From NCBI GenBank assembly GCA_964387705.1, contig CAYLWT010000001.1, positions 35,874 to 99,873 on the forward strand: a DNA stretch of 64,000 nt, read 5' to 3'. The notes beneath the pieces were generated by a model. It was not told the DNA's origin, did not search any database, and saw nothing but the letters and a program-made list of their open reading frames with translations. Shown piece after piece: positions 1 to 64,000 of the stretch. Made by a program: the position numbers and the translations under genes. Positions within the stretch are counted from its first letter, which is position 1; every line of letters begins with the position of its first letter. The stretch comes from an uncultured Christensenella sp. GTDB lineage: Bacteria > Bacillota > Clostridia > Christensenellales > UBA1242.

Positions 1-3000
1 CCAATTTTGCCATTGTTGTCAGTCCCGCTGCAATAAGTCATCACATTATTAACAATAAATTTGTTTTGCTCTTCATTATAATAAGCTGAATTAACTTCGA
101 GTTTTTTATTTATTGTGTCAAAAGAAGTATATGATATCGCTTCTTGCTTATCGCCAACAAAACCAACCTGCCAACTAGAAATAATTGCTTGAGAACGAGT
201 TATTGCCCAATTTTGTGTTAAGCCCGCATAAGTATAGTTCCCTCGAGATAAAGAACTATTATCATTTTCATAGTCATTTACAACTGTTACATTTGTGGTG
301 TAACTGCCTATACTTCCAATATAGTTTGTTTCGCTTCCGCTTAAAGTTGAATTGTAACTATTAATGTTGTTAAGTATAGTAAAGGAATCACCAACCTTAA
401 ACCCACCTTGAGGATAGATGACTGTCATCGTCTTGGCTGTCCCACTTAAATCTGTGGTCGTTATTTGGAACCTGATTTTGTCATCACCAACATTTTTGAA
501 CACAGGCAACACAACAAAAGTATAATTGCTCATATTTTGTATTGCATTTGTATAGTCGCCAACAATTGTATAATTGTTATTGCCACTTGTGTCTCTTTGT
601 GCATAAACCCATTTTTCAGTTTCAACTTTAAGTGGAGTTATACTCCAGTCTTTGCCTGTATTGTTGACAAGAACGTAATCCAAATTGCCAAAATAATCAT
701 AGCCACTATCATCAGTGTTGCCAGCAAGCCCACTTGCCGAACGACCAATGGACAAATCAACAAAATAATTTCCTGTGTTGCGAGGTTCTACTGTTTGTTT
801 AACTTTTTCTGCATCAAGAACGTAGGTTTCACCTTTGAGGAGCAAACTCGAAAGTTGCTCGCCATATGGAAGTGTAAGGGGTGAATTTGAAACAATTTTG
901 CCATTAAGTTTGGTTATTGACAAGTTGTAATTTTCATCTTTTACTGTTGTATCGTCCAAAGTTTCCCCACCTGTATAAATAGGGTTTATCTTGCTACGGT
1001 TATACACAAATGTGTTTTTTACCAAAGAAAGGTCAATTTGTGCTGGTTCTATTGAAACAGTATTAAACCCGAGATAACTCGTTGTGGTTCCAACCTTTTC
1101 ATCATCTATTCCACTGCCTGTAGCCGAGACTTGCACGCTTATATAACCAGAAAAGACATGTTTTAGAATAAGTTGATCGCCAACCACTTCGTCAGTTTTA
1201 TTTTGAATAAAGTTTTGTTCCGAACTACCATTAACTCTCCATTTCCATACATATGAATATGTGTAGTCTCCATTTACACTTTCAATATTAATAGAAAGTT
1301 TTATCTTCTTGCCATAATTGGTTGTAACTATGCCACCTTCTACATCGTACGTGCCTTCAACATTGTCTTCTTCATCAAGTATAACTGCCGACACAGTGAA
1401 TGCTGGGGCAGCAATGGTCCAAACTGCACGCATATTTTGTCCATAACGAATTTGTGTTTCAATTTCCCAAGAAAGATCTTCACCATTATCATTGATCAAA
1501 TATTTATATCCTTTTATGGCTTGTCCACTTTGTTCAAATCGACCCACAAAAACTGTTTCGGCCGCAGAAAGTTTTATCCTTCTTTCATCAGAAGCATCTA
1601 TATACGTGCTATAACTATCACCATACTTTGCCGTAATTTTAACCCATTTATTTTCTGAAATGCTTGTATTGTCTTGTGTTTTTGCAGTGTCAGTTGGAGT
1701 CTCAATTCCTGTTGATTTGAAAAGGTAGAAACTAAATTCGCCACCAATTTCTACCAAAGAAACTTCCCCTGCAACCCATTTTTGATTGCTATCTCCGGAA
1801 GAATTCTTGGATGTGTCTCGTGCAAACTTTTCGACGATTTCTGGATGCGTTGTTATAATTGCAATTTCTGTGTTGATATTGTTCTTGTATTTGTAAACAT
1901 CAGTGTTTGTCTTACATTCCACGACGACCAGTACTCTGCCAATGTCATCAATCAAAACATCTGCATTATTTTCTCCCTCTTTCATCGAATAAACATACAT
2001 CTCTCCAGAGATATTGCTAAGTTGTCTTATGTAAGGATATTCTCCATGCTCATCGGATTTTGAAACGTCATACAACACCACTTGCCCAACAATTTTAATA
2101 GCCGATTCACTGCCGTCAAGCCTCATCATCTCCTCTTGCCCTTTGAGGAAAATTGAACTATTTTTTCCACTAACGCCTGGATTAATTCTGTTATCTTCCA
2201 CAATCAAAGCTTTAACAATGATTGGCGAACACGAATAAATTCCAGTTCCTGCTGTGGAGTAATTGCTGGAAATTTTTGTGGCAGTTTCATTTTTTCCGCC
2301 ATCAAAGGAAACTTCTCCTCCAAGAATTGCAAGTGCACCACCATATGAATAGGACTTGTTGTTTGAAATTGTAGATTGTGTTATAACAACTTTTACACTA
2401 TCACCAGCACCTATTTTATTTTGATAAATTGCGCCACCATAGCCAAATAAGGTGTCGGTTGCAGGGTCTTTAACATTCGCCAAATTGTGTGTCAAAACTG
2501 CACCTGACTTAATTTCAAGCATGCCATAATTCGCTATTGCACCACCATTCCTTGCCATGTTGCTTTCAAGTGTTCCACCCTCAATTATCAGTGTTCCATA
2601 GTTCGAAATTGCACCGCCATCATTTATATTTTCCGAATTAGTCAAATACACACCGTTCCCAATACTAAGTTTGCCATTAGCTTCCACATAAATTGAACTT
2701 TCAGTGGCTTGCACACCCTTATTATAATTTGTAAGATTGGTGATATTTGATGGATAATTGCTACTTGAATAATTCGTAACACTCCAAACAGCTCCGCCGT
2801 CAATTGTTATTGCTCCGGAAATTGTAAGAGAACCCTCTGCGGTTACATCAATAAGTTTACTTGTAAAAGACTTTTCGGCACTTGTAAAACGAGTTATGAT
2901 AACCCCGCCAAGTTCTGCATCTCTGTTCCATTCTACATTTTTATCTTTAACTTCATAGGTTTCCGTAAGAATAATCTTTCCACCCTTAGTCAATGCTCCA

Positions 3001-6000
3001 AAAGCGGAATTCATATTTGTATGATAATAAATTTGGTTGCCACTTGTGTCCTTACTTTCCTCGCTTGTAACAGATTCAAGTGTTGTTGTAAGCGAACTAT
3101 TCACATAAAAGGTTGGTTCATCTTTTCCTTCACCTGTGCCATAATAAAGTTCCTGCGCATAAACAAACACTTCAATTTCACATGTCGCAGTGGAATATGC
3201 CGAATAAGTATTTTTATCTGGGACAAATATAACAATACATTTTTTGACACCAACTTCATTGAACAATGTGGAACTTTCACCCCATTCAAATTTTCCTATA
3301 ATTTCCACTGGATTTTTATCTTTTATCGTTGCTGAATCATAGACTTTTGCCGTGCCACCAAGATCAAGATAATTATCAAGAGTTGTTTTACTAACTGGGG
3401 TCGTTGCATTGTAATAAACGGACATACTAAGTTTTGGTTTATTCTTTTCATCAATTGAAACTTGTTTTGCTCCAATTTCAATAACCCTGCAATCATAACT
3501 GGTTGTTTTTAAGCTTTTTGTATTCTTAAATCTAAAATAAATGTATGACTTTCCAGAAAGAATTGGATTGTAGGAATCTTCCCAAATTTCGTTATTTTGC
3601 AAAATTTCATCAGAAAGGTTTCTTGTTGAACTTTGATAATATTGAATAGTGTAATTTTTTGCAACCGATTCAACCATCTTTATTGAAATCGAAATTGTGT
3701 GATATGCACCATCGTAACTTCCAATGTAATCGCTTGCAGTATAACTCACTGTTTCTGTTTCTGTTTCACTGATTCTGCTTCCAGATATCCCAAACATGAT
3801 GCGAGAAATTTCCCCCAAACGAGAACTGTAGTTCAAATCTGAATAATTTTGAGTACTTGTATTTGCAGAATAACTTGCCATAAACACATCATTGCCAAAT
3901 ATAACATCTGTGGAAATGGCATCGCTTGAAAAATATTGCAAATTCTTTGAATGTATAGAAGTTGAATTATTTGATGTTAATGAGCTGACACTTTTAACCA
4001 CCTCTACATATTTTGCGTCTCCCAAATTGTAAAAAATGCCAATTGCAGAGCCAGCATTCAAATCCCCATAAAGAGAAATTGTCTTTCCCACAGCGCTTAA
4101 AACAATGTTACGTTTGCTTCCACTTGGGTTATAATTGCCTAAAATGTATGGTGTCCCGCACAAAACAACACCCTCAGTATCTCCGCCGACTGCACCACCA
4201 ATTGTTGACGTGTTCCCAGAAATTTTTCCACCTGAAATGATAACTTTTCCACCCTTTAGGTTGATAATACTATCATCAGCCGAGTTTTCGCCGATATAAC
4301 CGCCAGCAATAGTCAAAGTTCCAGAAACATCGATTATATATTTGTTTTCGGAATTGTCCCCTATGTTGTTGTAAATTTGAGCATCGTCAGATATCACTAC
4401 ATTAACACTTCCAGGAATAAACACCACCGACTTAAAATTTTTATGACCTGTAATTTGTCCACCATAAATATTGAGTGTACTTCCGCTGTAGATTGCACCG
4501 CCTTCCTCAACCGCTTTGTTGTTTGAAATTATTCCATCATAAATATTAGTTGTTCCACCACTAAGATACAATGCCCCACCTGAGCCTGCGTAGTTTTGAT
4601 CAAACACCCCGCCATACATATTGAACTCTGTATTCGAGCCATTTACAAATATTGTGCCATTCCCTTGCCCATCGCCATTTTGCAAGAAATCTCCGCCATA
4701 AACATTAAGCTTTGTTGCTTTATCAACAAAAATTGCCGTTCCAGAATAAGTGTTGTTTGTCTGACTATTATAAACACTCGTTCCAGATTTCTTTATTTTG
4801 TTGCCCATAAATCTCGCACCATCATAAATATTAATCTCCGAGCCAAATGCAGCAATGGCACCGCCAGAAAGAGCCTGGTTCCCTTCAAAAATCCCACCAC
4901 GAATTGTGATTGTGCCTCCATTTGCACAAATTGCACCACCGAGGCCATCATAAGAACTTGATGATATGTAGTAGGTTTCATTTGCAACAAACCAACCTCC
5001 AGTCAAAAGCAGTGTTCCTTTTGAATACACCGCACCTCCAAAACTTGCAGAGTTGCTTTCAAACACACCACCCGCAATTTCAAGGGTTGTATTATCGCTT
5101 ACATACACCACTCCGCCATAGGTCCCATCATCAATAGGTTGAACGACGTTTCCTTCAAAAGTTCCACCATTTATCACAGCACTGCCATGTTCAAGGTAAA
5201 GTACAGAACCGTTTGAGGCATTATCATAAAAAGCCCCATCATTTATTTCTGTGTAAGCAGTTAAAGATGAATTCTTTGAATTTGAGTTTCTTATAACTCC
5301 ATAGATATTCCCATAGAATGCACCAGAATTTATAGTCAAATTCCCCTCATTCTTAATGGCTGAAGTCGTTTCCACATCTCGCAAGATTGTTCCGTCTTGA
5401 ATAATAAGTGTGCCATAATTTGAAATAGGGGCAGAGATAAACTCACTTGCAGATAAAACAAGCGTTCCATAATTCATTATTACATAGCTATTGTTTGATG
5501 TAATTTTAAGGTTATCTATTGTAAGTGTGCCATAGTTTTCGAACAAAATCCCAAGCCTGTCTCCCGCGTCTGTTACAAGGTCAACAATCATGTCTGAAAC
5601 ATTGACTGTAACCCCTGATTCTATTTTATAGAACACAACTGTTTTGACTTCCCCAGAAGAAGCTTCCCCAGAAGAAGCCCATTGACGTTTAACTTTAGAA
5701 ATGGTCATATCAGACTTGATAACGGTAGTCTCTGAAAAACTTACCACACTATATGATGTGTCGTCTAATTTTTTGTTTGTCCCACTCGAGATAAGTTTTG
5801 ATTTATTTTCATCTAATTTTAGTGATTCGGAGAAATTGACAAAAATGCTATTGTAATCTTTTTCTGTAAGATTTGTTGATTCCACAGTCGCAATGATCGT
5901 CCCCTCTCCTGACGTGTCAGGGGCAAGGTTTATAATAGAATTGCTTGAAATTGAGTTTAAAACAAGATTTGAATTTACTGTTTCTTCTGCGGACTCTCCA

Positions 6001-9000
6001 TTTTCTCTTGCAAGTTGCAATTTGCCCAAAATCTGAACATTTCCAGACAAAGTAAATGTAACGTCCGACACTATTTCCGTTACGCCACCAATATCTTTCT
6101 TTACTAGATTTTGATTTATTGCAATTTCATCTTCAGAGCCGGCTTGAATTAAGCTGTCTGAAATGTTAACAATCCCGCTGTAAACCCAAAGTTGTGAGCC
6201 ACAACCGCTCAATATTGTTCCATTTCCCGAATTCAAATTCCTGAAAAAGTTATTTGCAATGGTTGAATTGCTAATATTCATCGTAACTTTTGAAGTTTCT
6301 CCACCCACAATGCCTGCGGAACGGACATCCATTTCACTTGGTGAACCTTGAGCATAGTTGGAAGAAATGTAACTGCCCATAACTGTTATTTCATAGGCAA
6401 AATATACTGCCCCTCCAAATGTTGATGATGTAACATTTTCAATGCCATTGTTTACAACTTGAACATTGTTTAAAACAATATTTCTTGCATAAATTGCACT
6501 TCCATTTCCAGTCCCATTGTTATTTGCATGTTGAACAATATTCCCAACAAATTCACAATTTGTCAAAGTTGTCACATCGTCAGTCACGACTGTGCCATCA
6601 TCGTTTGTTTTCATTTCAACATACAAACCACCGCCATTTTGTGCTTTGTTATTTTCAACAGCAATCCCATTGGCAACAAATTTGTATTTCGCATAAATTC
6701 CACCACCATTTGTTGTCGCAATATTTCCTAAAATGGATATTGCACCCTCTCGGCCAAGTCCAAATGTTGAGTTGCAATTTTCAATATATAAACCGCCACC
6801 AATATAAGCATTATTATATTTTATCGTTGCTTGATAAATCTTTGAAACTTCTACAAAATATGCACCGCCACCAAGACCGCCAGTACCAGTTGTTGAATTA
6901 AACACAGCGGAGTTCGAAACAAGGTTGATGTTGCTTATCACAACACTCTCTCCCACTGCATAAATTCCTCCACCATTTTCAGCAGAGCAATTTAAAATGT
7001 CCGCATCGTATATTGTAACTTTTGCCGTTTCCGAAATATATAACCCGCCACCAAGAGTTGCAGAGCAATTTTGAATTGTTATGTCATAAATCGTAACCAC
7101 TGCGCCATCGCCAGCCAAAAGTCCGCCACCATTCCCCGTTGAATAACTATCCAAAATCTCCCCGCCATAAAGAACAAGAGTGGCACTTACAAAAACAGCC
7201 GAGCTTGTGCCGTTGTGATTTTGAATTGTTACACCATCATAAATAGAATGAGAACCTGAACTGAATTCAACTGCATTTTCAACTGTAGACCCCGTTTCCC
7301 CGGCATAATTTGCGCCATCAATTACAATTTTACCAGTCATATTTTTTGAACCTAGAGTTGTGTCTTTGAACATTGGTTGTGTAAAATCCGTTGCTCGCAC
7401 AAAGGTTACAGTCTTGTTGTCCACTGTCACCGTTTCGGTGGTTTCTATTGTGTTTTTTACATATATGATTCCACCATCGCTCATTTTGCTCAAAATGTCA
7501 GAGATTGAAGCCCCAATATAACTATCATTCCTATAAAAGCCAATTTTACTCTCAACTTGTTTATATTCAAGAACATCATAACCTTTAACTTCGACCAACA
7601 TTTCAAATTCTACTGGATCAAAAAGATTTGTGTTTTCTGGGGTGAATACAACCGTGAACACCTCATATCCTGCTGTTGTTCTTGCAATTCGAGTTTCGTC
7701 TTTCCATGTAAAAGTCCCTGCAATTGCATCTCCACCAAATTCTGCTCTCCCTTGTGAAATAGTTGCAGTGGACAGAGCATGCCCAACAAACAAACCATCA
7801 ACCACTGGAAGTTCACTGATTGTCAGTTGCCCTTGTGCCAAAAGTTGTATTGTGCTTTGTCTTGTTATTGTGTTGCTAGAACCTGTTGAAAGAGAATTAA
7901 CGATATAATATGTTCCTGCAAAAGAAGTTACTTTTTCAGTTGGGAACACAACCTCCTCAGAAAGACGAGAATCACTGTATGCACTAAATGTATATTTGTA
8001 GGAAACAGTCCCATTTGAAAATGTTTTATTCTCGCTATCATAAGAAAGTTTTTCACCATTTACGAACACTTGCATAAGACTGGCAGGAAGTGTTGAAATC
8101 GCACCACCATAATGGTTAATTGAACCCTTAAAATCGGAAGCAATAAAAATGTTTGAGTCTGATGAAATGGTTGTTGCATAAATTACTCCGTTGGAATTGC
8201 TCCCAGAATTTGAGAAACTATGTCCCAATGTAAATGACGTGCTGTCACTGCTGAAACATTCCACATCACTCGCCTTCATTGCATAAGGTTTACTGTTGCT
8301 GGCTTGGACAACAGTTTTCCCCGGATTTTTATCACTTACCCATGCAGTTGCATTTGTTGTAATCCCAATTTGAGAACCTGCTGACAAAGGCCCATTAATG
8401 TAAACTGGAGTGTTCCCAACCTCAAGATTTTTTGTTTGTCCGGTTATTAAAATTTCCCCTGAAATATTAAGGGTTGCACCATTTACAACAACTCCAGTCT
8501 CTGCCGAGCCTGAGACCTCAATGTCATGGAAATAAATTCTTCCACCATTAAGTTCCAGACCATTTTTTGAAGATTCTTTAAAAACTGTTGAATTGAACGA
8601 TACAAAAGAACTGCTACTTGATGCGTTGCCTGTGGTATAAACAAAACTTCCATTTGATTTGTAGAACTTTGAATTGAATATATCCCCACTTGCTTCCTTT
8701 GTGTTGAGATATATTGCTGCTCCATTGTTAGTCGCAGAAGTCGTTATGTCTTCTCCACCAAATGTAGAATTGCTTATTCTTATATATCCGCCACCAACAT
8801 AAATCACACCACCATTTTCAGCAGAAAAATTACCAAATTTCACGTTATCAATGTATGTCGAGCTTGAAACTGAATTTGCGGAAGTGACATAAATTGCTCC
8901 GCCATCTTTGCTTGTTTCTGAGGTTGTCCCTTCAAAACTTGCTACACTTGACGACATGTCTGAAAGACTGAGATTCCCTTGTGAATAAATTGCACCACCA

Positions 9001-12000
9001 CGAGAACCACTTGTATTGCAAACAAGTGAAATTCCAGTTGCAACCAAACTTCCCCAGTTACAAATCGCACCACCATCAGTTTCCGCAAAGTTGTCTGTAA
9101 AATAGCACTCTTCAAGAATAACCCCTGTATTTGAAGAAATGAAAATTGCACCGCCACAATCAGCCTCGTTTGAAACAAATCCAGTTTCTCCGTCCAAAAT
9201 TCTAAGAGCTTGTGTTGATGCGTAATTAATGAAAATTGCGCCACCGTTATTTGTTGCCTTGTTGCCTGTAAAAATTGTATTTTGAACAGTCAAAACCTCC
9301 GCATTTATTGCACCAGCATTGCCACTTGAAATATTTTTTGTAAATTCTGAATTTTTGACAAGCAATTCTTTTTTGGAATATACTGCGCCATTTGTTGAAA
9401 TATTCTCTATAAATTCGCAGTCATCAAGAGTAAGTTTTACATCTGCATCTTCACCAACTTTAACTGCAGAACCAATTGAACCCTTGTTGCTTTTAAATAA
9501 ACAACCTGCAACTGTGTATGAATATGAATTCCCCGTGATAAAAACACCTGCGCAATCACCTGAAACTGTGTTGTCAATAAACGAGCAATTTTGAATAATA
9601 TCATTTGAATTCGAAACTTTTAAAATTCCATTTACTGATTGAAGTTTTATTTCATTCCCTTCAAAAACGACATTCGAAACCAAATATCCCATATTATCAG
9701 CAAACTTGACGATTTCTTTTTGAAAGACATTGCCGGCAAATCTTCCGCCAGTTATAGAAAATTTGATATTTTCTCCAACAACCAGTCCATAACCATTTGT
9801 TGTAGTGGTGTAATAAATACTATTTGAAACAAACTCTACATTTTCAAGAGCAACCTCGCCATTGCCTGAAAGATACATAAGAGAACCCGATTGTGAAATG
9901 GTCGTGCCAGTAATTAATGCATCGGAAATTGTTAACGAACTATCTAAGGCATAAACAATAGCCCCTGAAATTTCTCGAGTTAATTCCACACTTTTTTTTG
10001 TGTCAATGGAATAAAAATCAACATTCGAAATTACTAAATTTGCCCCATTTGCAAGATAAATTGCTCCGCCTTGGTCCGCATAAATTGATGTAAAAGTTCC
10101 TTCACTAGCACTCACCTCAATGTCCCCATCAAGATACAATGCTCCACCTTGTGAAGATTCATCTTGTGCAGCAACATTTTCCATTTCAAAATCTTCCATT
10201 GTCACGTTTATTTTTACATCATTTTCTGCAAAAATTGCTACTGCGCCACGACTTCCCGTTAAGTAGTCCTTAATGCTAATACTCTTGACATCAATTGTGC
10301 AATTTTTGTCTGATTTTATAACCAAAACTCCAGCCTGCGTTGCAACCCCAACAACATTTTTTGCTTCAAATTCAGCTTGCAAAATTTGAACTTTTGAAAT
10401 GGAATTTATGTAAACGATTCCTTCTCCAGTTGCCGAGCAAGAAGAAAAAGTATTTCCGTCACGTTGATAAGCTTTTTTGGTTGGGTCCCCAAGGATAGTA
10501 TCTCCCGCAGAATTCACATAAAGTGCTCCGCCATTCGTTGCGGACAAGCCATCAAAAGAGCATTGTTTCGCTTGCAACAATTCCGTTTCTCCATCAAAAT
10601 ATATCGCTCCACCATTGCGCCCTGCATTTCCGCCAACAAAATTGTTTCTTTGAATCCTAAGCGATTTTTTGCTATATATTGCACCGCCATCAAAAGTCGC
10701 CGAGTTGGATACAAAACTTACTCCGTTTTCTACTTTATCTTCTTCATCTTGCTTGTCAAAAGTTGCATCTTCATCAAGGTAAATAGCACCACCATTTGAA
10801 GCATGATTGTTTTTGAACGTTACAATTGTTTCTTGAGCAAGGACAAGTCTCCCTGAAGCCATATAAATCGCCCCGCCATTGCCAGCAGTTTCATCACTTG
10901 TTCCATTCGAGTCAAAAAGTGAGTTTTCGACCGTCAAAATGCTTGACTTTCCGCTCACATAAATCGCCCCGCCATTGCCAGCAGCATTTTTACTCGAATC
11001 GCCACTTCCAGCAATGTTTCCTGTAAAAGTGCAATTGCTCAAGGAAACAACGCTGTTATTTATATATAAACCTGCACCACTTTCTCCCACGGAAGCTTTG
11101 CAATTATACACAGTGACATTTGACATTTCACAATTGCTTACATTATCCAAATAAATCCCACGCGAACAAATATCATTTTCTTCAAAGTTACCAATGTTTG
11201 AATTATAAATTTTGACAGTGGTTACATTCACCACTTTCAAGACACTGCCAGAACAACCTTTTGCGACAACCCCCTCAACATTTTCAGATGTTTCATCGCT
11301 CGCCAATACACCAAAATTTAGTTCACTAGCATTCTCAATTTCAAACGCGCTACCTCCGCCTGTTATATTTACGTTTTTGATTGTTGTTGTTGTTTTTGTT
11401 TCACGTTCTGATCCTTTTATCACGACATTCTTTGCACTTGAAGGATTGTTGATTGTTAACCCATCTATTTTAACCTCCTTTTCGTTTGTTGAAATGGACA
11501 AAACCGCACCAGAACTATTTGTAATGTTGTTACTATCAAAAGTGACATCTGAAATTGAAAGGGTTCCACCCAAACCCAAATTCAAAACATTGTCAACAGA
11601 CGCGTTTCCTGTAAAATTAACATTATTGAAAATTGGAGTCGTTTTAGTTGCATTCACAATTCTACCCACATTGTCAACAAAATTCACATTATTCAATCCA
11701 AGAACAACATTTGAAACATTAATGATGTTTGAAGCAACATTCCCTTCAAAAATCGTTTTATTTTGATCTGCATTTGAAAAAGTCAATGATTGATTCAAAA
11801 CTTCAACCAAACTTGCATTACCGGCATTATTGTTTGCAAAAGTGTTTACCCCCGAAAAAGTTACCATAGTATCACTTGCTTTGACAACAGTTCCGCCAAA
11901 ATCTTCAAATGTGCAATTTTCAAACGTAACATCAGTTGAAGATCCAATAGCAATCCCCGACACGCCTTTTGTTCCAATAAATTTACAATTTTTAAATTTA

Positions 12001-12458
12001 ACTCGATCTTTAGCAAATCCTTTCAAAGTGAGCATAACTCCCGATGTCAAACATTGATCAGCTTCGAATGTAAATCCGTCAAACACAAAACCCTTTTCCC
12101 AGTTAGCCGTGTCGTTAACCTCCACAGCCCCTGTAAAAACGAGGGTGTAGGCAATGTCGCTGTTTGTACTTTTATAAAACCCCTCATTCTCGTCCATCAC
12201 GATGCTTTCACTACCTAAAAGATCATTTACCAATTGTGTCATAGGGGGATACGTTGTTCCACTTTCTGGGACATAAACTCTATTCTCAGTCACACCAAGA
12301 AGAGACCCCTGTTGTTCAACAACTTGTTGACTTGCATATGCGCTAGAACGCGCGAAAAAATTTGGGGATAAAATAATTCCGCCAAATAACGCCACAACGC
12401 CCAGCAATGACGAACAGACGACTCTCATAAATTTTCGGTTCAAATTTCTCATAACCAT
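1..12458 (-). CDS. Giant secreted Pmp-repeat / right-handed beta-helix surface protein, 5' part only (more than 4150 codons; the 3' end lies left of the window)
   Basis: The minus-strand frame with codon low coordinates at multiples of 3 opens at ATG 12458 (alternative ATG 12452; AAGAGG just upstream; in-frame TAA at 12474-12476). It is absent from the ORF track although any internal stop would have produced a listed ORF; no listed minus ORF here shares its frame, so it must stay open to the window edge. Hand translation of the start: MVMRNLNRKFMRVVCSSLLGVVALFGGIILSPNFFARSSAYA|SQQ (signal peptide with AxA site). Spot translations at 3-59 and 1443-1499 contain no stops. At least 20 GGA[ILV][YF]-type motifs lie between 2424 and 10970 (e.g. 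GYGGAIY ending at codon 2424-2426, EEGGAIY at 4488-4490, GNGGAIY at 10863-10865; the frame was verified by hand for these three only). Confidence 0.85.
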   Translation of the reverse strand, partial: MVMRNLNRKFMRVVCSSLLGVVALFGGIILSPNFFARSSAYASQQVVEQQGSLLGVTENRVYVPESGTTYPPMTQLVNDLLGSESIVMDENEGFYKSTNSDIAYTLVFTGAVEVNDTANWEKGFVFDGFTFEADQCLTSGVMLTLKGFAKDRVKFKNCKFIGTKGVSGIAIGSSTDVTFENCTFEDFGGTVVKASDTMVTFSGVNTFANNNAGNASLVEVLNQSLTFSNADQNKTIFEGNVASNIINVSNVVLGLNNVNFVDNVGRIVNATKTTPIFNNVNFTGNASVDNVLNLGLGGTLSISDVTFDSNNITNSSGAVLSISTNEKEVKIDGLTINNPSSAKNVVIKGSERETKTTTTIKNVNITGGGSAFEIENASELNFGVLASDETSENVEGVVAKGCSGSVLKVVNVTTVKIYNSNIGNFEENDICSRGIYLDNVSNCEMSNVTVYNCKASVGESGAGLYINNSVVSLSNCTFTGNIAGSGDSSKNAAGNGGAIYVSGKSSILTVENSLFDSNGTSDETAGNGGAIYMASGRLVLAQETIVTFKNNHASNGGAIYLDEDATFDKQDEEDKVENGVSFVSNSATFDGGAIYSKKSLRIQRNNFVGGNAGRNGGAIYFDGETELLQAKQCSFDGLSATNGGALYVNSAGDTILGDPTKKAYQRDGNTFSSCSATGEGIVYINSISKVQILQAEFEAKNVVGVATQAGVLVIKSDKNCTIDVKSISIKDYLTGSRGAVAIFAENDVKINVTMEDFEMENVAAQDESSQGGALYLDGDIEVSASEGTFTSIYADQGGAIYLANGANLVISNVDFYSIDTKKSVELTREISGAIVYALDSSLTISDALITGTTISQSGSLMYLSGNGEVALENVEFVSNSIYYTTTTNGYGLVVGENIKFSITGGRFAGNVFQKEIVKFADNMGYLVSNVVFEGNEIKLQSVNGILKVSNSNDIIQNCSFIDNTVSGDCAGVFITGNSYSYTVAGCLFKSNKGSIGSAVKVGEDADVKLTLDDCEFIENISTNGAVYSKKELLVKNSEFTKNISSGNAGAINAEVLTVQNTIFTGNKATNNGGAIFINYASTQALRILDGETGFVSNEADCGGAIFISSNTGVILEECYFTDNFAETDGGAICNWGSLVATGISLVCNTSGSRGGAIYSQGNLSLSDMSSSVASFEGTTSETSKDGGAIYVTSANSVSSSTYIDNVKFGNFSAENGGVIYVGGGYIRISNSTFGGEDITTSATNNGAAIYLNTKEASGDIFNSKFYKSNGSFVYTTGNASSSSSFVSFNSTVFKESSKNGLELNGGRIYFHDIEVSGSAETGVVVNGATLNISGEILITGQTKNLEVGNTPVYINGPLSAGSQIGITTNATAWVSDKNPGKTVVQASNSKPYAMKASDVECFSSDSTSFTLGHSFSNSGSNSNGVIYATTISSDSNIFIASDFKGSINHYGGAISTLPASLMQVFVNGEKLSYDSENKTFSNGTVSYKYTFSAYSDSRLSEEVVFPTEKVTSFAGTYYIVNSLSTGSSNTITRQSTIQLLAQGQLTISELPVVDGLFVGHALSTATISQGRAEFGGDAIAGTFTWKDETRIARTTAGYEVFTVVFTPENTNLFDPVEFEMLVEVKGYDVLEYKQVESKIGFYRNDSYIGASISDILSKMSDGGIIYVKNTIETTETVTVDNKTVTFVRATDFTQPMFKDTTLGSKNMTGKIVIDGANYAGETGSTVENAVEFSSGSHSIYDGVTIQNHNGTSSAVFVSATLVLYGGEILDSYSTGNGGGLLAGDGAVVTIYDITIQNCSATLGGGLYISETAKVTIYDADILNCSAENGGGIYAVGESVVISNINLVSNSAVFNSTTGTGGLGGGAYFVEVSKIYQATIKYNNAYIGGGLYIENCNSTFGLGREGAISILGNIATTNGGGIYAKYKFVANGIAVENNKAQNGGGLYVEMKTNDDGTVVTDDVTTLTNCEFVGNIVQHANNNGTGNGSAIYARNIVLNNVQVVNNGIENVTSSTFGGAVYFAYEITVMGSYISSNYAQGSPSEMDVRSAGIVGGETSKVTMNISNSTIANNFFRNLNSGNGTILSGCGSQLWVYSGIVNISDSLIQAGSEDEIAINQNLVKKDIGGVTEIVSDVTFTLSGNVQILGKLQLARENGESAEETVNSNLVLNSISSNSIINLAPDTSGEGTIIATVESTNLTEKDYNSIFVNFSESLKLDENKSKLISSGTNKKLDDTSYSVVSFSETTVIKSDMTISKVKRQWASSGEASSGEVKTVVFYKIESGVTVNVSDMIVDLVTDAGDRLGILFENYGTLTIDNLKITSNNSYVIMNYGTLVLSASEFISAPISNYGTLIIQDGTILRDVETTSAIKNEGNLTINSGAFYGNIYGVIRNSNSKNSSLTAYTEINDGAFYDNASNGSVLYLEHGSAVINGGTFEGNVVQPIDDGTYGGVVYVSDNTTLEIAGGVFESNSASFGGAVYSKGTLLLTGGWFVANETYYISSSSYDGLGGAICANGGTITIRGGIFEGNQALSGGAIAAFGSEINIYDGARFMGNKIKKSGTSVYNSQTNNTYSGTAIFVDKATKLNVYGGDFLQNGDGQGNGTIFVNGSNTEFNMYGGVFDQNYAGSGGALYLSGGTTNIYDGIISNNKAVEEGGAIYSGSTLNIYGGQITGHKNFKSVVFIPGSVNVVISDDAQIYNNIGDNSENKYIIDVSGTLTIAGGYIGENSADDSIINLKGGKVIISGGKISGNTSTIGGAVGGDTEGVVLCGTPYILGNYNPSGSKRNIVLSAVGKTISLYGDLNAGSAIGIFYNLGDAKYVEVVKSVSSLTSNNSTSIHSKNLQYFSSDAISTDVIFGNDVFMASYSANTSTQNYSDLNYSSRLGEISRIMFGISGSRISETETETVSYTASDYIGSYDGAYHTISISIKMVESVAKNYTIQYYQSSTRNLSDEILQNNEIWEDSYNPILSGKSYIYFRFKNTKSLKTTSYDCRVIEIGAKQVSIDEKNKPKLSMSVYYNATTPVSKTTLDNYLDLGGTAKVYDSATIKDKNPVEIIGKFEWGESSTLFNEVGVKKCIVIFVPDKNTYSAYSTATCEIEVFVYAQELYYGTGEGKDEPTFYVNSSLTTTLESVTSEESKDTSGNQIYYHTNMNSAFGALTKGGKIILTETYEVKDKNVEWNRDAELGGVIITRFTSAEKSFTSKLIDVTAEGSLTISGAITIDGGAVWSVTNYSSSNYPSNITNLTNYNKGVQATESSIYVEANGKLSIGNGVYLTNSENINDGGAISNYGTLIIEGGTLESNMARNGGAIANYGMLEIKSGAVLTHNLANVKDPATDTLFGYGGAIYQNKIGAGDSVKVVITQSTISNNKSYSYGGALAILGGEVSFDGGKNETATKISSNYSTAGTGIYSCSPIIVKALIVEDNRINPGVSGKNSSIFLKGQEEMMRLDGSESAIKIVGQVVLYDVSKSDEHGEYPYIRQLSNISGEMYVYSMKEGENNADVLIDDIGRVLVVVECKTNTDVYKYKNNINTEIAIITTHPEIVEKFARDTSKNSSGDSNQKWVAGEVSLVEIGGEFSFYLFKSTGIETPTDTAKTQDNTSISENKWVKITAKYGDSYSTYIDASDERRIKLSAAETVFVGRFEQSGQAIKGYKYLINDNGEDLSWEIETQIRYGQNMRAVWTIAAPAFTVSAVILDEEDNVEGTYDVEGGIVTTNYGKKIKLSINIESVNGDYTYSYVWKWRVNGSSEQNFIQNKTDEVVGDQLILKHVFSGYISVQVSATGSGIDDEKVGTTTSYLGFNTVSIEPAQIDLSLVKNTFVYNRSKINPIYTGGETLDDTTVKDENYNLSITKLNGKIVSNSPLTLPYGEQLSSLLLKGETYVLDAEKVKQTVEPRNTGNYFVDLSIGRSASGLAGNTDDSGYDYFGNLDYVLVNNTGKDWSITPLKVETEKWVYAQRDTSGNNNYTIVGDYTNAIQNMSNYTFVVLPVFKNVGDDKIRFQITTTDLSGTAKTMTVIYPQGGFKVGDSFTILNNINSYNSTLSGSETNYIGSIGSYTTNVTVVNDYENDNSSLSRGNYTYAGLTQNWAITRSQAIISSWQVGFVGDKQEAISYTSFDTINKKLEVNSAYYNEEQNKFIVNNVMTYCSGTDNNGKI

Positions 12459-12681
12459 AAACCTCTTGGCAAATTAGCCTTTGAATTTGTTGACACAAAA
12501 TTGCACAATTCGACAATTCTATTACAACTATGATTATATTATATATTATGGGCCAAAAATTAACAAATATTTTGCAACAAAAAAAACAGAAAAAACAACT
12601 TTTTTATTTAAAATTTAGTTGACAAATATATTTTTGTGTATTTTTGCTTTACAAAAGTATTTTGGCGAATATCTTTCACTC

Positions 12682-12718
12682 AAAAAAATAGAAAAAATAG
12701 GCACTTTTTTGCCTATTT
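12682..12718 (-). terminator. Rho-independent terminator after the 2868-aa gene
   Basis: Minus strand: AAATAGGCA-AAAAAG-TGCCTATTT hairpin (12695-12718) followed by TTTCTATTTTTTTG. Confidence 0.6.
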
Positions 12719-12758
12719 TCCCCCAAATTTATATTGTTTTTTTATAGTTACAAAAGTC

Positions 12759-15700
12759 CTATTTTTTATAAAAAGTTTGTGATTTTTTGGACTTTACAAT
12801 TAAAATTACAAAAATTGCTATAGCAATTAACACACATATCACATTCAAAATGGTTGTCAAATTATCATTTTGAACTATTTGTTCGGAACTTTCAATTGTA
12901 TTCATTGCCTCCACTGACTCAATGGTCGAAGTTAAGACTTTTTCTCCACTTGAAAGTAAAACAGAACCTCCTTCACCTTTATACAAACCTGCTCCTTCAC
13001 CACTTGCAATATTGGACAAAATTTGTGTGTTATCAAGAACCAATTCCCCGCCGTCGGCGACACAAATTCCTCCACCATTATTTTGAGCAATATTATGAGT
13101 TATTTGACCACTTAAAAGGGTTGCCGACCCACCGTTTGCGACGTAAACTCCTGCTCCAGAGCCACTTTTATTGTTTGAGATAGTCCCACCAGATACGGTT
13201 AGTTTTCCCGCCGAATAAACAAATCCTCCATTACCATTTATTGCTTTATTGCCGTAAAATTCACCACTTAAAACGCGCATTGTTCCTTCATTATAAACCA
13301 CGCCACCAATGACATAATCACTATTTGAAGAGAACTTTAACTCGTTATCATAAATCTTGCACCCTTGCAGAATGAGCGTTCCTTTGTTGCAAATTATCCC
13401 ATGCAAGGAAGACGATGCATACGAAGTATATGTGAAATTTCTAACCTCAACATTTGCCCCAAGTGTAAGCCTACCATTGACCACAAAGAGAGGGCTCTGT
13501 GTACTGTCATCTTTACCTTCAAACAACGCTTGTCCGCCTGTGCAAGAAATCGTAAGATTTCCCCCATCATTCACTTCAATCATTGCGAAATTTATTTCAG
13601 AATTTTCTCTAACAAATTTAACTCTCTTTGAAATTGCAATAGTTTCACTTCCTTGCACAGAATAAGAGGTCTTAAAGACAAATGTTCCGTCATCATTAAG
13701 ATATTCCAGTGCCTCAGCGAACGAACTGACATTTATTTTGTTTTTACCTTCACTGTCGGCATAAATTGCAGTATCTTTTCCAACGGTCATATAATACATT
13801 TTATTATACACAACTTCAACATACATCTTGGCAGTCACATTATCTTTATTTTCATAAAGAGATGTTTGTTTTGGAGTAAATTTGCAATCATAATAACCAG
13901 AGTTTACAACGCTTTCTGGGGACAACAAACTCCACGTTCCAGCAACTTCTTGGCCATTGCTACGCTTAACCAAACCCGCTTGAGTAAGTTTGAAAGACGA
14001 TTCATTTTGAGAAATCATTTTCGCTTGAGGAGTGGAGATTATATACAAATATTCGCCCACAATTTGCACAACTATTTCGCCAGCAAGCCCATTTTTAGTA
14101 GTCTCTAAAACACTGGACTTAAGCTCCACTTCGCTTTCTCCAATTCTAATTTTTTTCACCGCGATGCCCAACGTATAACTACCCTTTGAATGCAACGTTA
14201 TGCTGTCGGTATGTTCTTCCAAAAACGAAGCTCCTTCCTTAAGACTAAATGTCATTGAAACAATGTCAACCACATTGTTGTTATTTTTAACTTCAAAATA
14301 ACTCTTATCAATTACATAACCACCTTTTGGCATATTGGAATACAAAAGTGTTATATCCGACAAAATCAAAGAATATGTATATGTATTGTCGTTTTCATCT
14401 GTTACTGAAATCATTTTACTATCTGTTGTGCTTGATTTTGAATAAGCAAGAAGTTGTTTTTTGTTTGAAGAATAACTTAAATAATATGAAGAATTGTCGT
14501 CACTGAAAAACTTTTTGATGTCATCATTTTCAAGCGGAATATTTGTATCCGTTGGCGATTGGACAACAACACTGCCTGACTGAAGTGTAACACCTATGCT
14601 ACTGCCCTCAACGAGTCCTCCTTCAAGGAAGGCTGTTCCACCAACATTTAACTTTAGGTTGAGGTTGCTTTTCGAATCACTTGTATTAGTATTGCCTGAA
14701 ATGACAACTTTTGAGCCACGAGTTATGACAATTTTGCCAGTTTCTGCTATGTAAATTGCACCATTTGAAGAACTATTCCCAGTTACAATAATTTCCCCTG
14801 AAAGACGTAAATTTACCCCATTAGAAACATAAATTGCACTGCCTGACGTTGAAACATTTCCATCTGTAAATGAAGAATCTATGATTTCAATCGAACAATC
14901 TTCATCAAGTTTATTTAATTTCAGTCCACCATTTTTTTTGTTCGAAAGAAATTTTGAATTTGCAATGATGCCATAATTTGTAGTGAGAGAAAGCCCCCCA
15001 TCTGCATTTTGATTGAAATTGCAATTTTCAACCCACACATTAGGAGCTGAAATTACAACACCACTTTCATCTCCGTCACACTTGCCATAAGAAAAATTAC
15101 TATCCAAAATTTCAGCACTTTTTGATGCCTTAACATAAAGGTGTGAGATATTTCCGCCGTTTTCTTCTCCAAATTCACAATTTGACAAAACAAATGACAC
15201 ACAATCTTCTACATACAATTTTGCTACGCCAGTTTCACTTGATTGCCCCCCGTCATCAAAAGAACTATCCTGCACCACTAATTGTCCACTGGTAAAGAGA
15301 ACCGCTCTACCATTGCCTGTTGCAGTGTTCTTTGAGAATTCGCTAGAAAGAATATTCGTTGTGCATCTTTGCAAATAAACCGCTCCGCCTGTTGTTGCAG
15401 AATTCCCGTCAAACGATAAGTAAGAAAGAGAAATTGCTCCATTCGTTGCAAATATTGCACCTCCCATTGAGGCTTTATTGCCCCTGAAAATCGTATCTCT
15501 TGCTTCAAACGAGACGCTGTCGGCATACAATCCTCCGCCTACGCCGTTCGTCACCTGTTCTTCAAATTTATTATTAGAAATTTCTGCTCCATTTATATAC
15601 AAACTGCCAATTGCATAAATTCCCGCACCAAAACTGTCGGATGAGGTTAATTTATTTTCAGAAATTATTGCACCTTGTTCAATGGTCAAAGAACTATTTT

Positions 15701-18700
15701 CCTTGGAACAAACTCCCCCACCAAACTTTGAAGCCGTATTACTTAAAATGCTCGCCCGAGAAACAGTTGTGTCTCCGAAGGAAAACACTCCGCCTCCGTT
15801 TTGTGCAGTATTATTTGAAATTATACTTTCAGAATAAGTCAAATCAATCTTAAGTTTGCCAGACACCAAAAGAGTTGCACCTTCTTGAACATAAATTGCT
15901 CCGCCATTATCTGTTGCCGTGCAGTTTGAAATCGTGCCAGCAAAAGACACATTCCCTCCATCACAAACATAAATTGCTCCGCCATTTTGAGCCTCACAAT
16001 ATGACAATGTAATGCCATCAAAAGATGCCCTGCCATATACAACAATCGCCCCTCCACCAAGAGAAGAGTTTGTGTTCTTAAGATATGAAATTGCACCACC
16101 CGAAACATTCAAGTTGCCGCCATTTCTAACCAAAATAAAGCCATTTGTGTGAGATATTTTGTTATCGTTTGTGCCATTTGCTTTAACATTATTAAGGTAA
16201 ACTACGCCCTCATCTCCAACCAAAATTGCCGTGCCATAACCAGATTTTGTTGTATCACCATTTTGAGCAAATGTGCAATCTTTAATCACAACTTCACACC
16301 CCTCAACGCTTATTACATCAGATAAGTAAGGATTTGCCTCGCTGACGTTGTTGGTGAAAGAACAATTGTCGAGCGTTCCACTGCTCAAATTTCCACTTTG
16401 CTTGGAAAATACAAGAACAGCACCTTTATTTTTGTTGCCTGTAAATGTTGAATTGTTGATTGTTATATCAACAGAACTTGTTGCTCCAACAACACCAAAC
16501 CCATTCGATATATTGCCTTCAAAGGTGACATTGCTCACTGTTAATTTGTCACTTGCAACATAATTTGATGATGCTTGAGTAAATGTTTTGAAAGAGTTGT
16601 CAAAATAAATTGTTGATGCATAATTTGCTTCATTTTTGTTGAATAATACAATATCTATTTTAAGCGGGGATTTTGCATAAATTGCACCACCAAGACCTGA
16701 CATATCGGTCATATTTTTATTTAAAACTGCTTTATTGTTTTCAAAAATTACTGCATTTTCCGCCACACCAACAATGTTAAGTGTGGAAAATTTTGCAAAC
16801 CCTTCCAAACTATCAATTGCACTGTCCGAGTATATTGCTCCGCCGTAATTTGCTTCATTTTTGATAAATGTTGCACGAACAATTTTTGTAGACATTGGAA
16901 GTGCATATGCAGTTCCACTTTGAGCATTTGGAGAATCATTTACATAATCACTATACTTGATGGTTAATTCACTATTACCAAGAGATATTGCACCACCAAA
17001 ACCAAACATTCCTTCATTTTGTGTTTGGGCAATATTTTCCTCAAATTTTGCCCCGTCAATAATTGTCACCCCACAAGCATGCACTGCACCGCCATTTTGA
17101 GCATAATTTCCTTCAAATGTCACCACAAAATCAACAGCATTCTCATTTAGGATTTCAAAGCAATTTGCTGTGTAAATTGCGCCGCCTTCACCTGTAATAA
17201 TTTCACCTTTCTTTGTTTTATTATCGCTAAAGATTACTATGCCATTTGATGTGTCGTTCGTTGTTTTGTATCCTGCAATCGTTCCCCCTGTTACAATTTG
17301 AACACACTCTCCCCAAACAGCACCGCCTTGCGAAAGGGTGGAACTTGTGGCAAAATTTTCATCAAATTTTCCACCAGAAATTATAAGTTTTGGCGAAGAA
17401 TGTTGACATTTTGTTGAATAAAGTAGAGAAGATGTGACGTTTCCATACGAACAAATTGCACCGCCTTTGGCAATCATTTCCCCACCTGCAACAGAATTTC
17501 CAGAAACATAGACATCTGTGAGTTTTAAGATTGTCTTGCACGAAAGGATTGCCCCTCCACCAACAAACAATCCCTCCCCAGAGGCAGTAACAGAATTCCC
17601 AATGAAAGTTGTATTTTTAATTTCTATTTCAGATTCAGAGCCTATGCTTGAAAGATAAACTGCGCCTCCACCAACTCCAAGATTTTTATTACCCGAAACA
17701 AAAGCTCTGTTGGATTCAAAAAGGCAATTTTGCACAATTCCCGAGCAATCTTGAATGGTCAAAGCTCCACCATTTGACATGCCATCATTATTTATAAATT
17801 CACTATTTTTTATGAGAATATCATCTTTTGAAACCACATTCTCAAGATACAAAACTCCATAATTTGCAAAATTGCTTAACGATTCATCATCTTTTTTCTG
17901 ATTGTATTTTGCAACAAAATTACTTATTGAAATGGCTGCGGACAATTCGTTTGATTTGCATTTTATTGCAAACAATGCCCCAGAACCTGTTGAAACATTT
18001 CTAACAGCATCCAAATTGTTGCCATTATTAAGGTCACCTCCAACAGTTATGTCTTCTAACACCAACTCTTCTGTCCCGTCCAAAATGAAATTTGCAACCC
18101 CATAAAGCTTTGCTTTGTTGCCCGTAAACTTTAAATTTGACATTTCTAGTTTTTTATAACCCTTTGCACTATTTGATTTAACAAGCAATGCTCCTGCAAT
18201 GGCATCTGAATTTGTACTCGTTGCCTCATTCCCATAAAAATTTGTGTTTGTTATTTCAAAATTTCCACTAAAATTGTCACCTGTGCCAACCGCACCAAAT
18301 GAAAGTCCACCCGAATAAAGTCCATTGTTTCCTTTGAATGTGCACCCGTCAAAGCAAACACCAACGCTATCTGAAGAAGTTGATTGATATAAACCTTTGA
18401 CAAGCACTGTCCCATAGCCCGAAGCAGACGAACTGTTTTTTTCAAAAGTTGTTCCACTAAATTTATAATTATATGCACCATTTGCATCAACAATCATTGC
18501 ACTGGCATATCCGTTTTCACCACGAGCATTATTTCCTTCAAACGACCCACCTTCAAATGTTACATCTTTCCCCGATAATAACCGACAATTGTCAAGATAT
18601 AGTGCTGTATCGAATATGTTGTTATCTTTAAATGTTGGATTTTTTATGTAAAGTTGATACCCTGAAATGGATACTGCATAATTTGAATATTTTGAGACAT

Positions 18701-21821: not shown

Positions 21822-22094
21822 TTATTTAAGCATATCTTTGAAAGATTTTCCGAACTTGAAAGTTGGTGCTTTGGTTGCTGGGATTTTGATTGCCTTTTTT
21901 GTTTGTGGATTTACCCCAGTTCTTGCAGCTCTTTCTTTAACTTTAAAAGTGCCGAATCCTGCGAGGACAACCTCTTCTCCGTTTTTCAATGCTTCAGCAA
22001 CTGTTGCCACGAATGCTTTGTATGCTTCGTCCGCATCTTTAAGTGTGAAGCCAGCTTTTGTTGCGATTGCGCTAACAATATCACCTTTGTTCAT
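21822..22094 (-). CDS. hup: HU-family histone-like DNA-binding protein
   Basis: 90 aa: MNKGDIVSAIATKAGFTLKDADEAYKAFV...GFGTFKVKERAARTGVNPQTKKAIKIPATKAPTFKFGKSFKD. This is the classic HU/IHF fold signature. AAGGAG RBS. Confidence 0.95.
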   Translation of the reverse strand: MNKGDIVSAIATKAGFTLKDADEAYKAFVATVAEALKNGEEVVLAGFGTFKVKERAARTGVNPQTKKAIKIPATKAPTFKFGKSFKDMLK

Positions 22095-25714: not shown

Positions 25715-25757
25715 TTTTTCTCCCTTTGCAAAAAACTCCACATGGGAGTTTTGCTAT

Positions 25758-28818: not shown

Positions 28819-29022
28819 TTTTCTAATAAGTATTCTACCATATAAATAGTTTTTAAGCAATAAAATTTATCCTATTTTTATCAAAAAAATTTTTATTTTT
28901 TTATTTGCCATCTATTAAGACGACTCCAAAGTTCATTTTCACAAAACATACTTATAATCACACGTATAGAGTTTTTCTCGAATGAATGTTCAGCCTCAAA
29001 AAAACTACAGGTCGGAAGGCAG

Positions 29023-40374: not shown

Positions 40375-40381
40375 TAAAAAT

Positions 40382-63559: not shown

Positions 63560-63581
63560 AAGATTACTAAAAGGATAAATT

Positions 63582-64000
63582 ATGGAAAACGATAAACTAA
63601 AAGCAAAAAAATTAGCACGAGTTTCACCAAACAGTTTGGAAGCAGAGCAATCTGTTTTGGGCTGTTGTCTTTTGGATGAAAATTCTGCCTTTTCCATTGT
63701 GTCAAATCTTTCGCCAGATGATTTTTACACCGAAGCACACAAGACAATTTTTGAGTGCATGCAGGAAATTTTTAGACAAAACAAGCCTATTGATTATGTA
63801 ACCCTTACAGATGAACTTGACAGGCGTGGCCTTATGGAAAGTGTTGGCGGAATTGATTACATTGCAATGCTAACGAACATTGTTCCAAGTGCGAGCAACT
63901 CAAAACATTATGTGGACATTGTAAGACGTGATTCGCTTTTAAGAAAACTCATTCATGCCAGCCAAGACATAATTGACAAAGCTTATTCGCCAGACGAATC
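63582..64000 (+). CDS. dnaB: Replicative DNA helicase DnaB (DnaC in Bacillus nomenclature), N-terminal 139 codons; runs off the window
   Basis: Not in the ORF track because there is no stop in the window. Hand translation: MENDKLKAKKLARVSPNSLEAEQSVLGCCLLDENSAFSIVSNLSPDDFYTEAHKTIFECMQEIFRQNKPIDYVTLTDELDRRGLMESVGGIDYIAMLTNIVPSASNSKHYVDIV... The PxxxEAEQSVLG motif is the canonical DnaB N-terminus. Confidence 0.9.
   Translation, partial: MENDKLKAKKLARVSPNSLEAEQSVLGCCLLDENSAFSIVSNLSPDDFYTEAHKTIFECMQEIFRQNKPIDYVTLTDELDRRGLMESVGGIDYIAMLTNIVPSASNSKHYVDIVRRDSLLRKLIHASQDIIDKAYSPDE

Follow-up and report, generated by a model that had tools for sequence, protein, structure and literature searches.

In chlamydial polymorphic membrane proteins (Pmps), one repeat corresponds to one coil of a β-helix whose conserved residues face the core (PMC11166332), and these proteins are described as mediating adhesion (PMC2997323). 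Gut methanogens encode adhesin-like proteins with right-handed β-helix domains of up to 1,236 amino acids (aa), some of them carrying Chlam_PMP repeats, together with a stalk of β-sandwich or immunoglobulin (Ig)-like domains and a single transmembrane anchor (PMC11532034). Apilactobacillus kunkeei has tandem genes, Giant1–5, for extracellular proteins of 3,000–8,000 aa with β-solenoid domains, which evolve rapidly and often break assemblies; in related Apilactobacillus species the giant clusters are found upstream of genes including rlmD and rsmG, which indicates an origin-proximal position (PMC12863079). Here we describe a gene, giant 1, that fills the first 12,458 nucleotides (nt) of a 64,000-nt stretch of DNA (the window) from an uncultured Christensenella sp. 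(contig CAYLWT010000001.1), and its tandem neighbour upstream, giant 2. We consider it likely that giant 1 is an intact, expressed gene for a Sec-exported giant fibre or adhesin of the cell surface in this uncultured, Christensenellales-like member of the gut Clostridia, its function being judged by analogy.

A single coding frame truncated by the window edge

The initial annotation had read the first 12.4 kb of the window as a single uninterrupted giant coding frame that begins with a signal peptide, and both parts of this reading hold. Translated with table 11, complement(3..12458) yields 12,456 nt, or 4,152 sense codons, and no stop; the remaining five frames of 1..12458 have 170–375 stops and a longest open stretch of 188 aa. 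With a stop probability of 0.075 per codon, as given by the local base composition, the chance of such an open frame is ~1e-141. Translation cannot begin earlier than ATG 12458, since an in-frame stop is located 5 codons upstream of it and no start codon intervenes. The entire stretch is coding, rather than merely open, because its relative synonymous codon usage (RSCU) is host-like in all sections and in the claimed frame only. Compared with the housekeeping genes of the window (ftsH, mnmG, gyrA, gyrB and dnaA), the RSCU of giant 1 correlates at r = 0.955 in frame versus 0.35–0.40 in the two shifted frames, and six consecutive sections of 692 codons give r = 0.75–0.91 in frame versus 0.19–0.59 off frame. 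The section that makes up the orphan tail of the protein is also coding-like (r = 0.91).

The small open reading frames (ORFs) that the ORF track of the window lists in this region are off-frame or antisense shadows, as had been proposed: the high coordinates of all six minus-strand ORFs (3289, 4990, 7816, 8725, 9244 and 10714) equal 1 mod 3, whereas 12458 equals 2 mod 3. Giant 1 was missed by the track since its frame has no stop inside the window, and the dnaB fragment at the right edge was missed for the same reason: the plus-strand frame 63579..63998, in which the N-terminal domain of DnaB is recognised (PF00772, E = 4.8e-34), covers the 5′ part of dnaB and stays open to the window end. 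By dropping frames that leave the contig end, the track hides one-fifth of the 64-kb window, or one-third, the share occupied by both giants, when giant 2 is included, and makes it look like non-coding DNA.

Thus, complement(3..12458) is an intact and real gene, truncated only by the window edge. It is extremely unlikely that the frame reflects a chimeric or collapsed assembly, or a relic whose recent inactivation lies beyond the window, although the window ends inside the gene, the contigs of the two closest metagenome-assembled genomes (MAGs; L002 and L003) end at or just before the giant locus, and no identical or orthologous protein is on record. Indeed, no stop interrupts the 12.46 kb, codon usage is host-like over the full length in one frame only, the start signals are intact and GC content is even across the gene (0.36–0.385). 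Collapse across the repeats had been a concern of the initial annotation; the repeats, however, turned out to be a degenerate protein motif of ~27 aa. Tandem Repeats Finder detected only two trivial arrays of 31–38 nt, and the longest dispersed DNA repeats are 25–64 nt long with 60–97% identity, mostly representing the codons of one short protein motif. Since there are no long DNA repeats, collapse or mis-join in giant 1 is unlikely. Furthermore, a Logan contig of 5,115 nt from an independent assembly (L001, run SRR11880803), found via ParA next to ParB, is 100% identical to window positions 28290–33404. It stops short of the giants, but its identity implies that the same strain was sampled elsewhere and that the assembly next to the giants can be trusted, a point in favour of the assembly as a whole. 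Fragmentation of assemblies at giant genes has been described (bioRxiv 10.1101/2023.11.21.568195), and the contig breaks in the two relatives resemble it, yet no long DNA repeats are evident here to explain them.

The Shine-Dalgarno-like AAGAGG is spaced 9 nt from an in-frame ATG at 12452 and 3 nt from ATG 12458, so that the true start may lie two codons later, at ATG 12452, which is immaterial for the finding. The promoter-like site upstream of giant 1 has 10 of 12 consensus matches and is one of eight such sites in the region (3.1 expected). The terminator-like hairpin that follows giant 2 is the only site of its kind there (0.2 expected). Together, the hairpin after giant 2 and the promoter-like site suggest that giant 1 is a separate transcription unit. 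Features associated with phase variation, namely, long homopolymers or simple repeats, were not found within or upstream of giant 1, nor was a regulatory RNA found near the two giants.

Pmp-type repeats, predicted β-helix and a putative surface fibre

The visible product of giant 1 (442 kDa, pI 4.6) is rich in Ser, Gly, Asn, Thr, Val and Ile, and such an acidic, Ser/Gly/Asn/Thr-rich composition is typical of extracellular fibres. Its sole strongly hydrophobic segment is N-terminal (aa ~10–36, with hydropathy of at least 1.6 for windows starting at aa 10–18), Arg/Lys residues within aa 4–12 provide a basic n-region, and the sequence A-Y-A followed by S is found at aa 41–44. By inspection, the N-terminus corresponds to a type I, Sec-type signal peptide, presumably cleaved between AYA and SQ. 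Genes for a signal peptidase S26, YidC and YidD are present in the same window, and no accessory secretion genes were seen in it. Neither the visible part of giant 1 nor giant 2 contains an internal LPXTG-like motif.

Sliding-window self-comparison with phmmer resolved four coil blocks in giant 1, blocks 2–4 being assigned by sequence alone. When the protein was scanned against Pfam in pieces of ~500 aa, Chlam_PMP (PF02415) scored 51.3 and 41.4 bits in block 1 and 28.5 bits in block 3 (cut-off 20.6), and Beta_helix (PF13229) scored 34.4 bits for aa 850–1350 (cut-off 25.9). The TIGR01376 POMP_repeat model gave 25.2 bits (cut-off 15). For the undivided 4,152-aa protein, PF02415 reached 17.9 bits, which is below the cut-off. 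The motifs that define these repeats are strongly over-represented relative to shuffled sequences: GGA[ILV] occurs 26 times (0.7 expected), usually at a spacing of 24–36 aa, and FxxN 39 times (15.4 expected). Of their combinations, FxxN-x(4,5)-GGA was observed eight times and GGA[ILV]-x(14,18)-FxxN five times (0.01 expected for each), and a relaxed coil pattern 20 times (0.25 expected). The same motif spacing is displayed by chlamydial Pmps (PMC11166332).

Block 1 was aligned with its paralogous blocks and with 23 distant homologues, and the resulting alignment, in which the consensus F..N.A...GGAIY recurs, was used as the input for AlphaFold2 modelling of block 1. The resulting model has a pTM of 0.65, with pLDDT mostly in the range of 80–97 over aa ~430–1170, where 51% of the residues are in short, regular strands and there is no helix. 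A sequence search of PDB with giant 1 gave nothing meaningful. In the Foldseek search of PDB with the block 1 model, all 50 listed matches were right-handed parallel β-helix proteins. Their E-values are all weak (best 5.6e-4), as would be expected for a helix of ~30 coils compared with much shorter solved ones. Block 1 is thus predicted to fold as a long right-handed parallel β-helix, and giant 1, having both Pmp-type repeats and this predicted fold, belongs to the broad class of Pmp-repeat, right-handed β-helix proteins. As a separate observation made by eye and with regular expressions, a segment in which IG[IV] is followed by FSSD or FFSD (F[FS]SD) ends blocks 1 and 3 of giant 1 (aa 1402 and 2843) and the main β-helix of giant 2 (aa 2286), and may represent a C-terminal cap motif of these β-helices.

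By E-value, the best Foldseek matches are PL6 alginate lyases, GH110, AlgG/AlgE epimerases and phage depolymerase tailspikes. Together with the gut habitat, in which glycan degradation is common, these matches speak for a surface-displayed polysaccharide-active enzyme, that is, a pectate-lyase-like β-helix lyase, hydrolase or epimerase with a catalytic groove in at least one of the blocks. We regard such an enzyme as unlikely. The structural matches are at the level of the fold (E-values of at least 5.6e-4 and TM scores of at most 0.45), and the passenger of pertactin, which is non-enzymatic, ranks first both in Foldseek probability (1.00) and in TM score (up to 0.45). Moreover, no segment matches a carbohydrate-active enzyme-type Pfam family (pectate lyase, GH28, PL6 and others) at E <= 1, the only matches being Beta_helix and Chlam_PMP, and a layout of four distinct blocks, each a very long and regular run of coils, is seen more typically in stalks or adhesins than in enzymes.

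In giant 1, neither the linkers nor the final ~670 visible aa gave any Pfam match at a threshold as lenient as E <= 1. The stretch from within linker 1 into the start of block 2 (aa ~1561–1720) is weakly similar to aa 2441–2640 of giant 2 (phmmer, 14–18 bits), and a word-indexed search of a collection of 5.8 billion proteins with aa 1400–1720 found no homologue. The same type of search with aa 3501–4152 of the tail returned no matches among 5.8 billion proteins. An exhaustive phmmer search with aa 3480–4152 against 1.84 billion representatives produced a single match, P0024, which was rejected as a tandem-repeat junk translation with a score summed over twelve low-complexity stretches. Scans of genomes and metagenomes with the last 500 visible aa detected no relatives, and tblastn searches of plasmid and phage collections with aa 2870–4152 gave no match. 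A single-sequence AlphaFold2 model of the tail was uninformative (pLDDT 30). At the other end of the protein, the N-terminal 700 aa retrieved only distant Pmp-repeat proteins, with 26–36% identity over 21–64% of the query, from a Methanomicrobiales archaeon, an Endomicrobia autotransporter and unnamed metagenome proteins; the best of these matches is a β-helix protein of the Methanomicrobiales archaeon (P0001). Judging from these searches, giant 1 is without an orthologue in the public data searched.

The orphan and apparently fast-evolving C-terminal region also bears on another reading, in which giant 1 is the delivery stalk of a polymorphic toxin or of an effector of contact-dependent competition, with a toxin domain past the window edge and an immunity gene downstream. 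Toxin-bearing protein ends often evolve fast, and the C-terminus of giant 1 is indeed beyond the window; in addition, a Fil_haemagg repeat match is found at aa ~3250–3300 (E = 0.008, below the cut-off). However, the 4,152 visible aa contain no toxin, pre-toxin, RHS/YD, LXG or TpsA-type two-partner secretion (TPS) domain, no TpsB or type VII secretion system gene is found in the window, and the tandem paralogue, giant 2, ends simply in a transmembrane anchor. This role is therefore very unlikely.

For the fibre or adhesin that we favour, the pre-protein would leave the cytoplasm by the general Sec pathway, and signal peptidase I would cleave it after AYA. Once outside, the coil blocks would form rigid β-solenoid rods joined by β-rich linker modules. 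A β-helix rises ~4.8 Å per coil; at ~27 aa per coil, the roughly 90 coils of giant 1 would form a fibre of some tens of nm, with block 1 alone accounting for 15–20 nm. By analogy with the transmembrane helix and basic tail of giant 2, a C-terminal element beyond the window would retain giant 1 on the cell. Partners of the fibre in adhesion or other contact at the surface could be host glycans or mucus, polymers of the diet or other microbes, with binding specificity possibly carried by the fast-evolving non-repeat regions.

Several points weigh against this reading. The adhesin role is inferred purely by analogy. The tetrapeptides of Pmps face the helix core and are structural (PMC11166332), so that their presence argues for the β-helix fold and not for an adhesin function. 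The best PDB E-values, all of them weak, belong to polysaccharide lyases, hydrolases and epimerases. About one-third of visible giant 1, namely, the linkers and the last ~670 aa, has neither a homologue nor a usable structure model, and the signal peptide was judged by eye and hydropathy. Finally, the C-terminus, with the anchor or any effector domain, is located beyond the window.

A quite unlikely variant is a two-component fibre, in which tail-anchored giant 2 would form the base and giant 1, perhaps lacking its own anchor, would be retained by end-to-end stacking of the Pmp-type β-helices, and in which the orphan regions would include new ligand-binding folds particular to this gut lineage. 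Such stacking has been predicted for Pmp oligomers (PMC11166332). Pertinent to this arrangement, the two proteins share the coil type and one linker module, their adjacent genes appear to be transcribed separately, an anchor is seen only in giant 2, and the orphan sequence of giant 1 (linkers and tail), for which the 1.84 billion representative proteins offer no homologue, exceeds 1,000 aa.

Giant 2, gene neighbourhood and related genomes

The features of the two giants are listed in Table 1. At its C-terminus, giant 2 has a transmembrane helix and then the basic tail KSKKSQTFYKK, without LPXTG. GGA[ILV] occurs 17 times in giant 2 (0.4 expected), and the coil regions of the two giants are 24–29% identical, with one linker module weakly shared.

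Table 1. Features of giant 1, giant 2 and the sequence between them (positions in the 64,000-nt window)
Feature	Position	Strand	Basis or description
Giant 1 coding sequence, 5′ part only	1..12458	minus	4,152 codons from ATG 12458 to base 3; bases 2-1 open the next codon; 3′ end left of the window
Putative signal peptide (aa 1–43; MVMRNLNRKFMRVVCSSLLGVVALFGGIILSPNFFARSSAYA, followed by SQ)	12330..12458	minus	Hydropathy and AXA site read from sequence
β-helix block 1 (aa ~360–1330)	8469..11381	minus	Densest run of Pmp-type coils; Chlam_PMP, Beta_helix, self-similarity map, AlphaFold2, Foldseek
Linker 1, non-repeat module (aa ~1420–1640)	7539..8201	minus	No Pfam match
β-helix block 2 (aa ~1640–2100)	6159..7541	minus	Self-similarity to block 1 and to the giant 2 β-helix; GG[AG][ILV] motifs
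β-helix block 3 (aa ~2240–2800)	4059..5741	minus	Chlam_PMP, 28.5 bits; self-similarity
Linker 2, non-repeat (aa ~2870–3160)	2979..3851	minus	No Pfam match at E <= 1; no self-similarity
β-helix block 4 (aa ~3160–3450)	2109..2981	minus	Self-similarity to block 3 of up to 34 bits; weak Chlam_PMP and Fil_haemagg matches
Orphan tail, β-rich (aa 3480–4152, open at the window edge)	3..2021	minus	No detectable homologue
Shine-Dalgarno-like AAGAGG	12462..12467	minus	Read from sequence
Promoter-like TTGTTA-17-TATAAT upstream of giant 1	12538..12566	minus	Consensus match only
Intrinsic-terminator-like hairpin and T-run	12690..12723	minus	Directly 3′ of the giant 2 stop; 14-pair stem
Giant 2, tandem neighbour upstream (2,868 aa)	12759..21365	minus	Signal peptide, ~760-aa non-repeat N-terminal region, Pmp-type blocks, C-terminal transmembrane helix

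The window covers the origin region of a chromosome. On the minus strand, the gene order is recF-like, dnaA, dnaN, an unknown 314-aa ORF, rpmH, rnpA, yidD, yidC, jag, mnmE, mnmG, rsmG, parA, parB, ftsH, two unknown ORFs, signal peptidase S26, degV, hup, giant 2 and giant 1, with gyrB and gyrA pointing the other way on the plus strand, starting at 45171. The GC skew switches sign at ~44–45 kb, and both giants are therefore on the leading strand, 23–45 kb from the origin. The layout of the origin itself (window 38740–45171) is non-canonical, in that the recF-like gene, dnaA, dnaN, the 314-aa ORF, rpmH and rnpA are co-linear on the minus strand, rather than dnaA diverging from rpmH-rnpA. Downstream of gyrA, a homologue of the sporulation gene yabP is found at 49976–50332 (plus strand), which points to a sporulating-Firmicute heritage; the adjoining 161-aa ORF has no Pfam match and could, by its position, be yabQ. 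Three intervals on the side of the giants deserve description. Between parB and ftsH (28861–29805), 945 nt of AT-rich sequence contain no ORF above 60 aa, give no Rfam hit at the gathering threshold and fall within the 4-kb bin of lowest GC content in the window (0.307). The interval between ftsH and the signal peptidase gene (24365–26390, minus strand) contains ORFs of 458 and 210 aa with no Pfam family at E <= 1, except for a 14-bit trace of Glyco_hydro_2. Finally, the hup gene for HU (90 aa; 21822–22094, minus strand; PF00216, E = 3e-32) is located between degV and giant 2, and accounts for the observation that the apparent gap between these two genes is more conserved with L003 (88% of nt) than the flanking genes (79–83%).

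With FtsH as a probe, the best matches were 90% identical, and the organism was placed among uncultured gut Clostridia, for which Christensenella or Christensenellales is the most frequent label. No record was identified by exact-protein look-ups of giant 2 and MnmG. Among 80 ftsH-anchored loci from related MAGs, not one contains anything related to giant 1, and only in L003, a MAG from the Hadza gut, does a homologue of giant 2 begin: its contig stops 220 codons into this homologue (7036–7719), which is 60% identical to giant 2 and is the sole relative of giant 2 found. In more distant Christensenellales-like MAGs, open frames of 1,500 to more than 2,700 aa adjoin ftsH, some of them cut by the ends of the loci (L020, 3–8186; L018, 2–7576; L033, 15791–21694; L063, 13694–18892; L034, 15106–19800). 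The large ORFs of these five loci show no similarity to giant 1 or giant 2 in tblastn searches, and the frames of L020, L033, L063 and L034 have no PMP or Beta_helix match in Pfam, that of L033 containing a Listeria-Bacteroides repeat. Large surface-protein genes near the origin may be recurrent in the Christensenellales-like group.

With at least 4,152 codons visible and the frame still open, giant 1 had been placed among the larger bacterial genes by the initial annotation. This is fair as a percentile, yet the gene is by no means exceptional, since proteins predicted for bacteria reach 85,804 aa, and exceed 30,000 aa in Firmicutes, and the survey reporting them highlights proteins of >10,000 and >30,000 aa (bioRxiv 10.1101/2023.11.21.568195). 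Proteins of the size of giant 1 are uncommon but well documented, so that it is large yet ordinary and challenges no current concept. What is unusual is its size, the four-block architecture with orphan linkers, the pairing of tandem giants near the origin and the lack of orthologues. With giant 1, uncultured gut Clostridia of a group about which little is known gain a very large, lineage-specific putative surface protein, and fibres of this type probably determine how cells attach to mucus, food particles or partner microbes. MAGs routinely lack genes of this kind since contigs break there, which is also seen in the two closest relatives. Moreover, the non-repeat third without homologues is a modest source of possibly new extracellular domains.

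Comparison with Pmps, adhesin-like proteins and other giants

Pertactin and other β-helical passengers, as well as TpsA fibres of the filamentous haemagglutinin type, resemble giant 1 in using a long, single-chain right-handed β-helix as an extracellular fibre or adhesin. Unlike giant 1, however, they depend on type V secretion, which is specific to diderms, whereas visible giant 1 has no β-barrel or TPS domain and its Fil_haemagg match is below the cut-off.

In the repeat itself, giant 1 resembles chlamydial Pmps (PF02415, TIGR01376). In both cases, GGA[ILV] and FxxN occur in a repeat of ~25–30 aa with the FxxN-x(4,5)-GGA spacing (PMC11166332). Furthermore, the repeat families are matched above their curated cut-offs, the predicted β-helix resembles pertactin-type passengers, and there is a signal peptide at the N-terminus. 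By contrast, Pmps are type V autotransporters of diderms, 900–1,800 aa long, with one β-helix, a Pmp-middle domain and a C-terminal 12-stranded β-barrel, whereas giant 1 belongs to a Clostridia host, exceeds 4,152 aa and has four β-helix blocks joined by unrelated linkers; its identity to Pmp-repeat proteins is only 26–36%, with partial coverage. Neither the autotransporter barrel (PF03797) nor a Pmp_M domain was found in the 4,152 visible aa, the C-terminus being outside the window, and an outer-membrane barrel is unlikely given the Clostridia lineage with its sporulation genes. Because no barrel or Pmp-middle domain is visible, the host belongs to Clostridia and the paralogue ends in a simple transmembrane helix, giant 1, as judged from its visible part, should not be filed as a chlamydial-type Pmp autotransporter.

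The adhesin-like proteins of Methanobrevibacter smithii and Methanosphaera stadtmanae share with giant 1 the gut habitat and a modular organization, and giant 2 is likewise anchored by a transmembrane helix. They differ from giant 1 in being much smaller, in usually having one β-helix, in their mostly N-terminal anchor and in their recognisable Big-type domains, whereas no known Ig-like family is recognised in the linkers of giant 1.

The giants of A. kunkeei have one N-terminal β-solenoid resembling those of serine-rich-repeat proteins (SRRPs), long rods of α-helical repeats and an SH3b-like wall-binding C-terminus, whereas giant 1 is all-β, with Pmp-type coils in four blocks; the likeness between them is one of description and implies no sequence similarity. 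Nevertheless, the two systems have in common a Firmicute host and tandem giant genes, and the pair described here is located ~10–30 kb from rsmG and 23–45 kb from the GC-skew switch, reminiscent of the origin-proximal clusters of Apilactobacillus.

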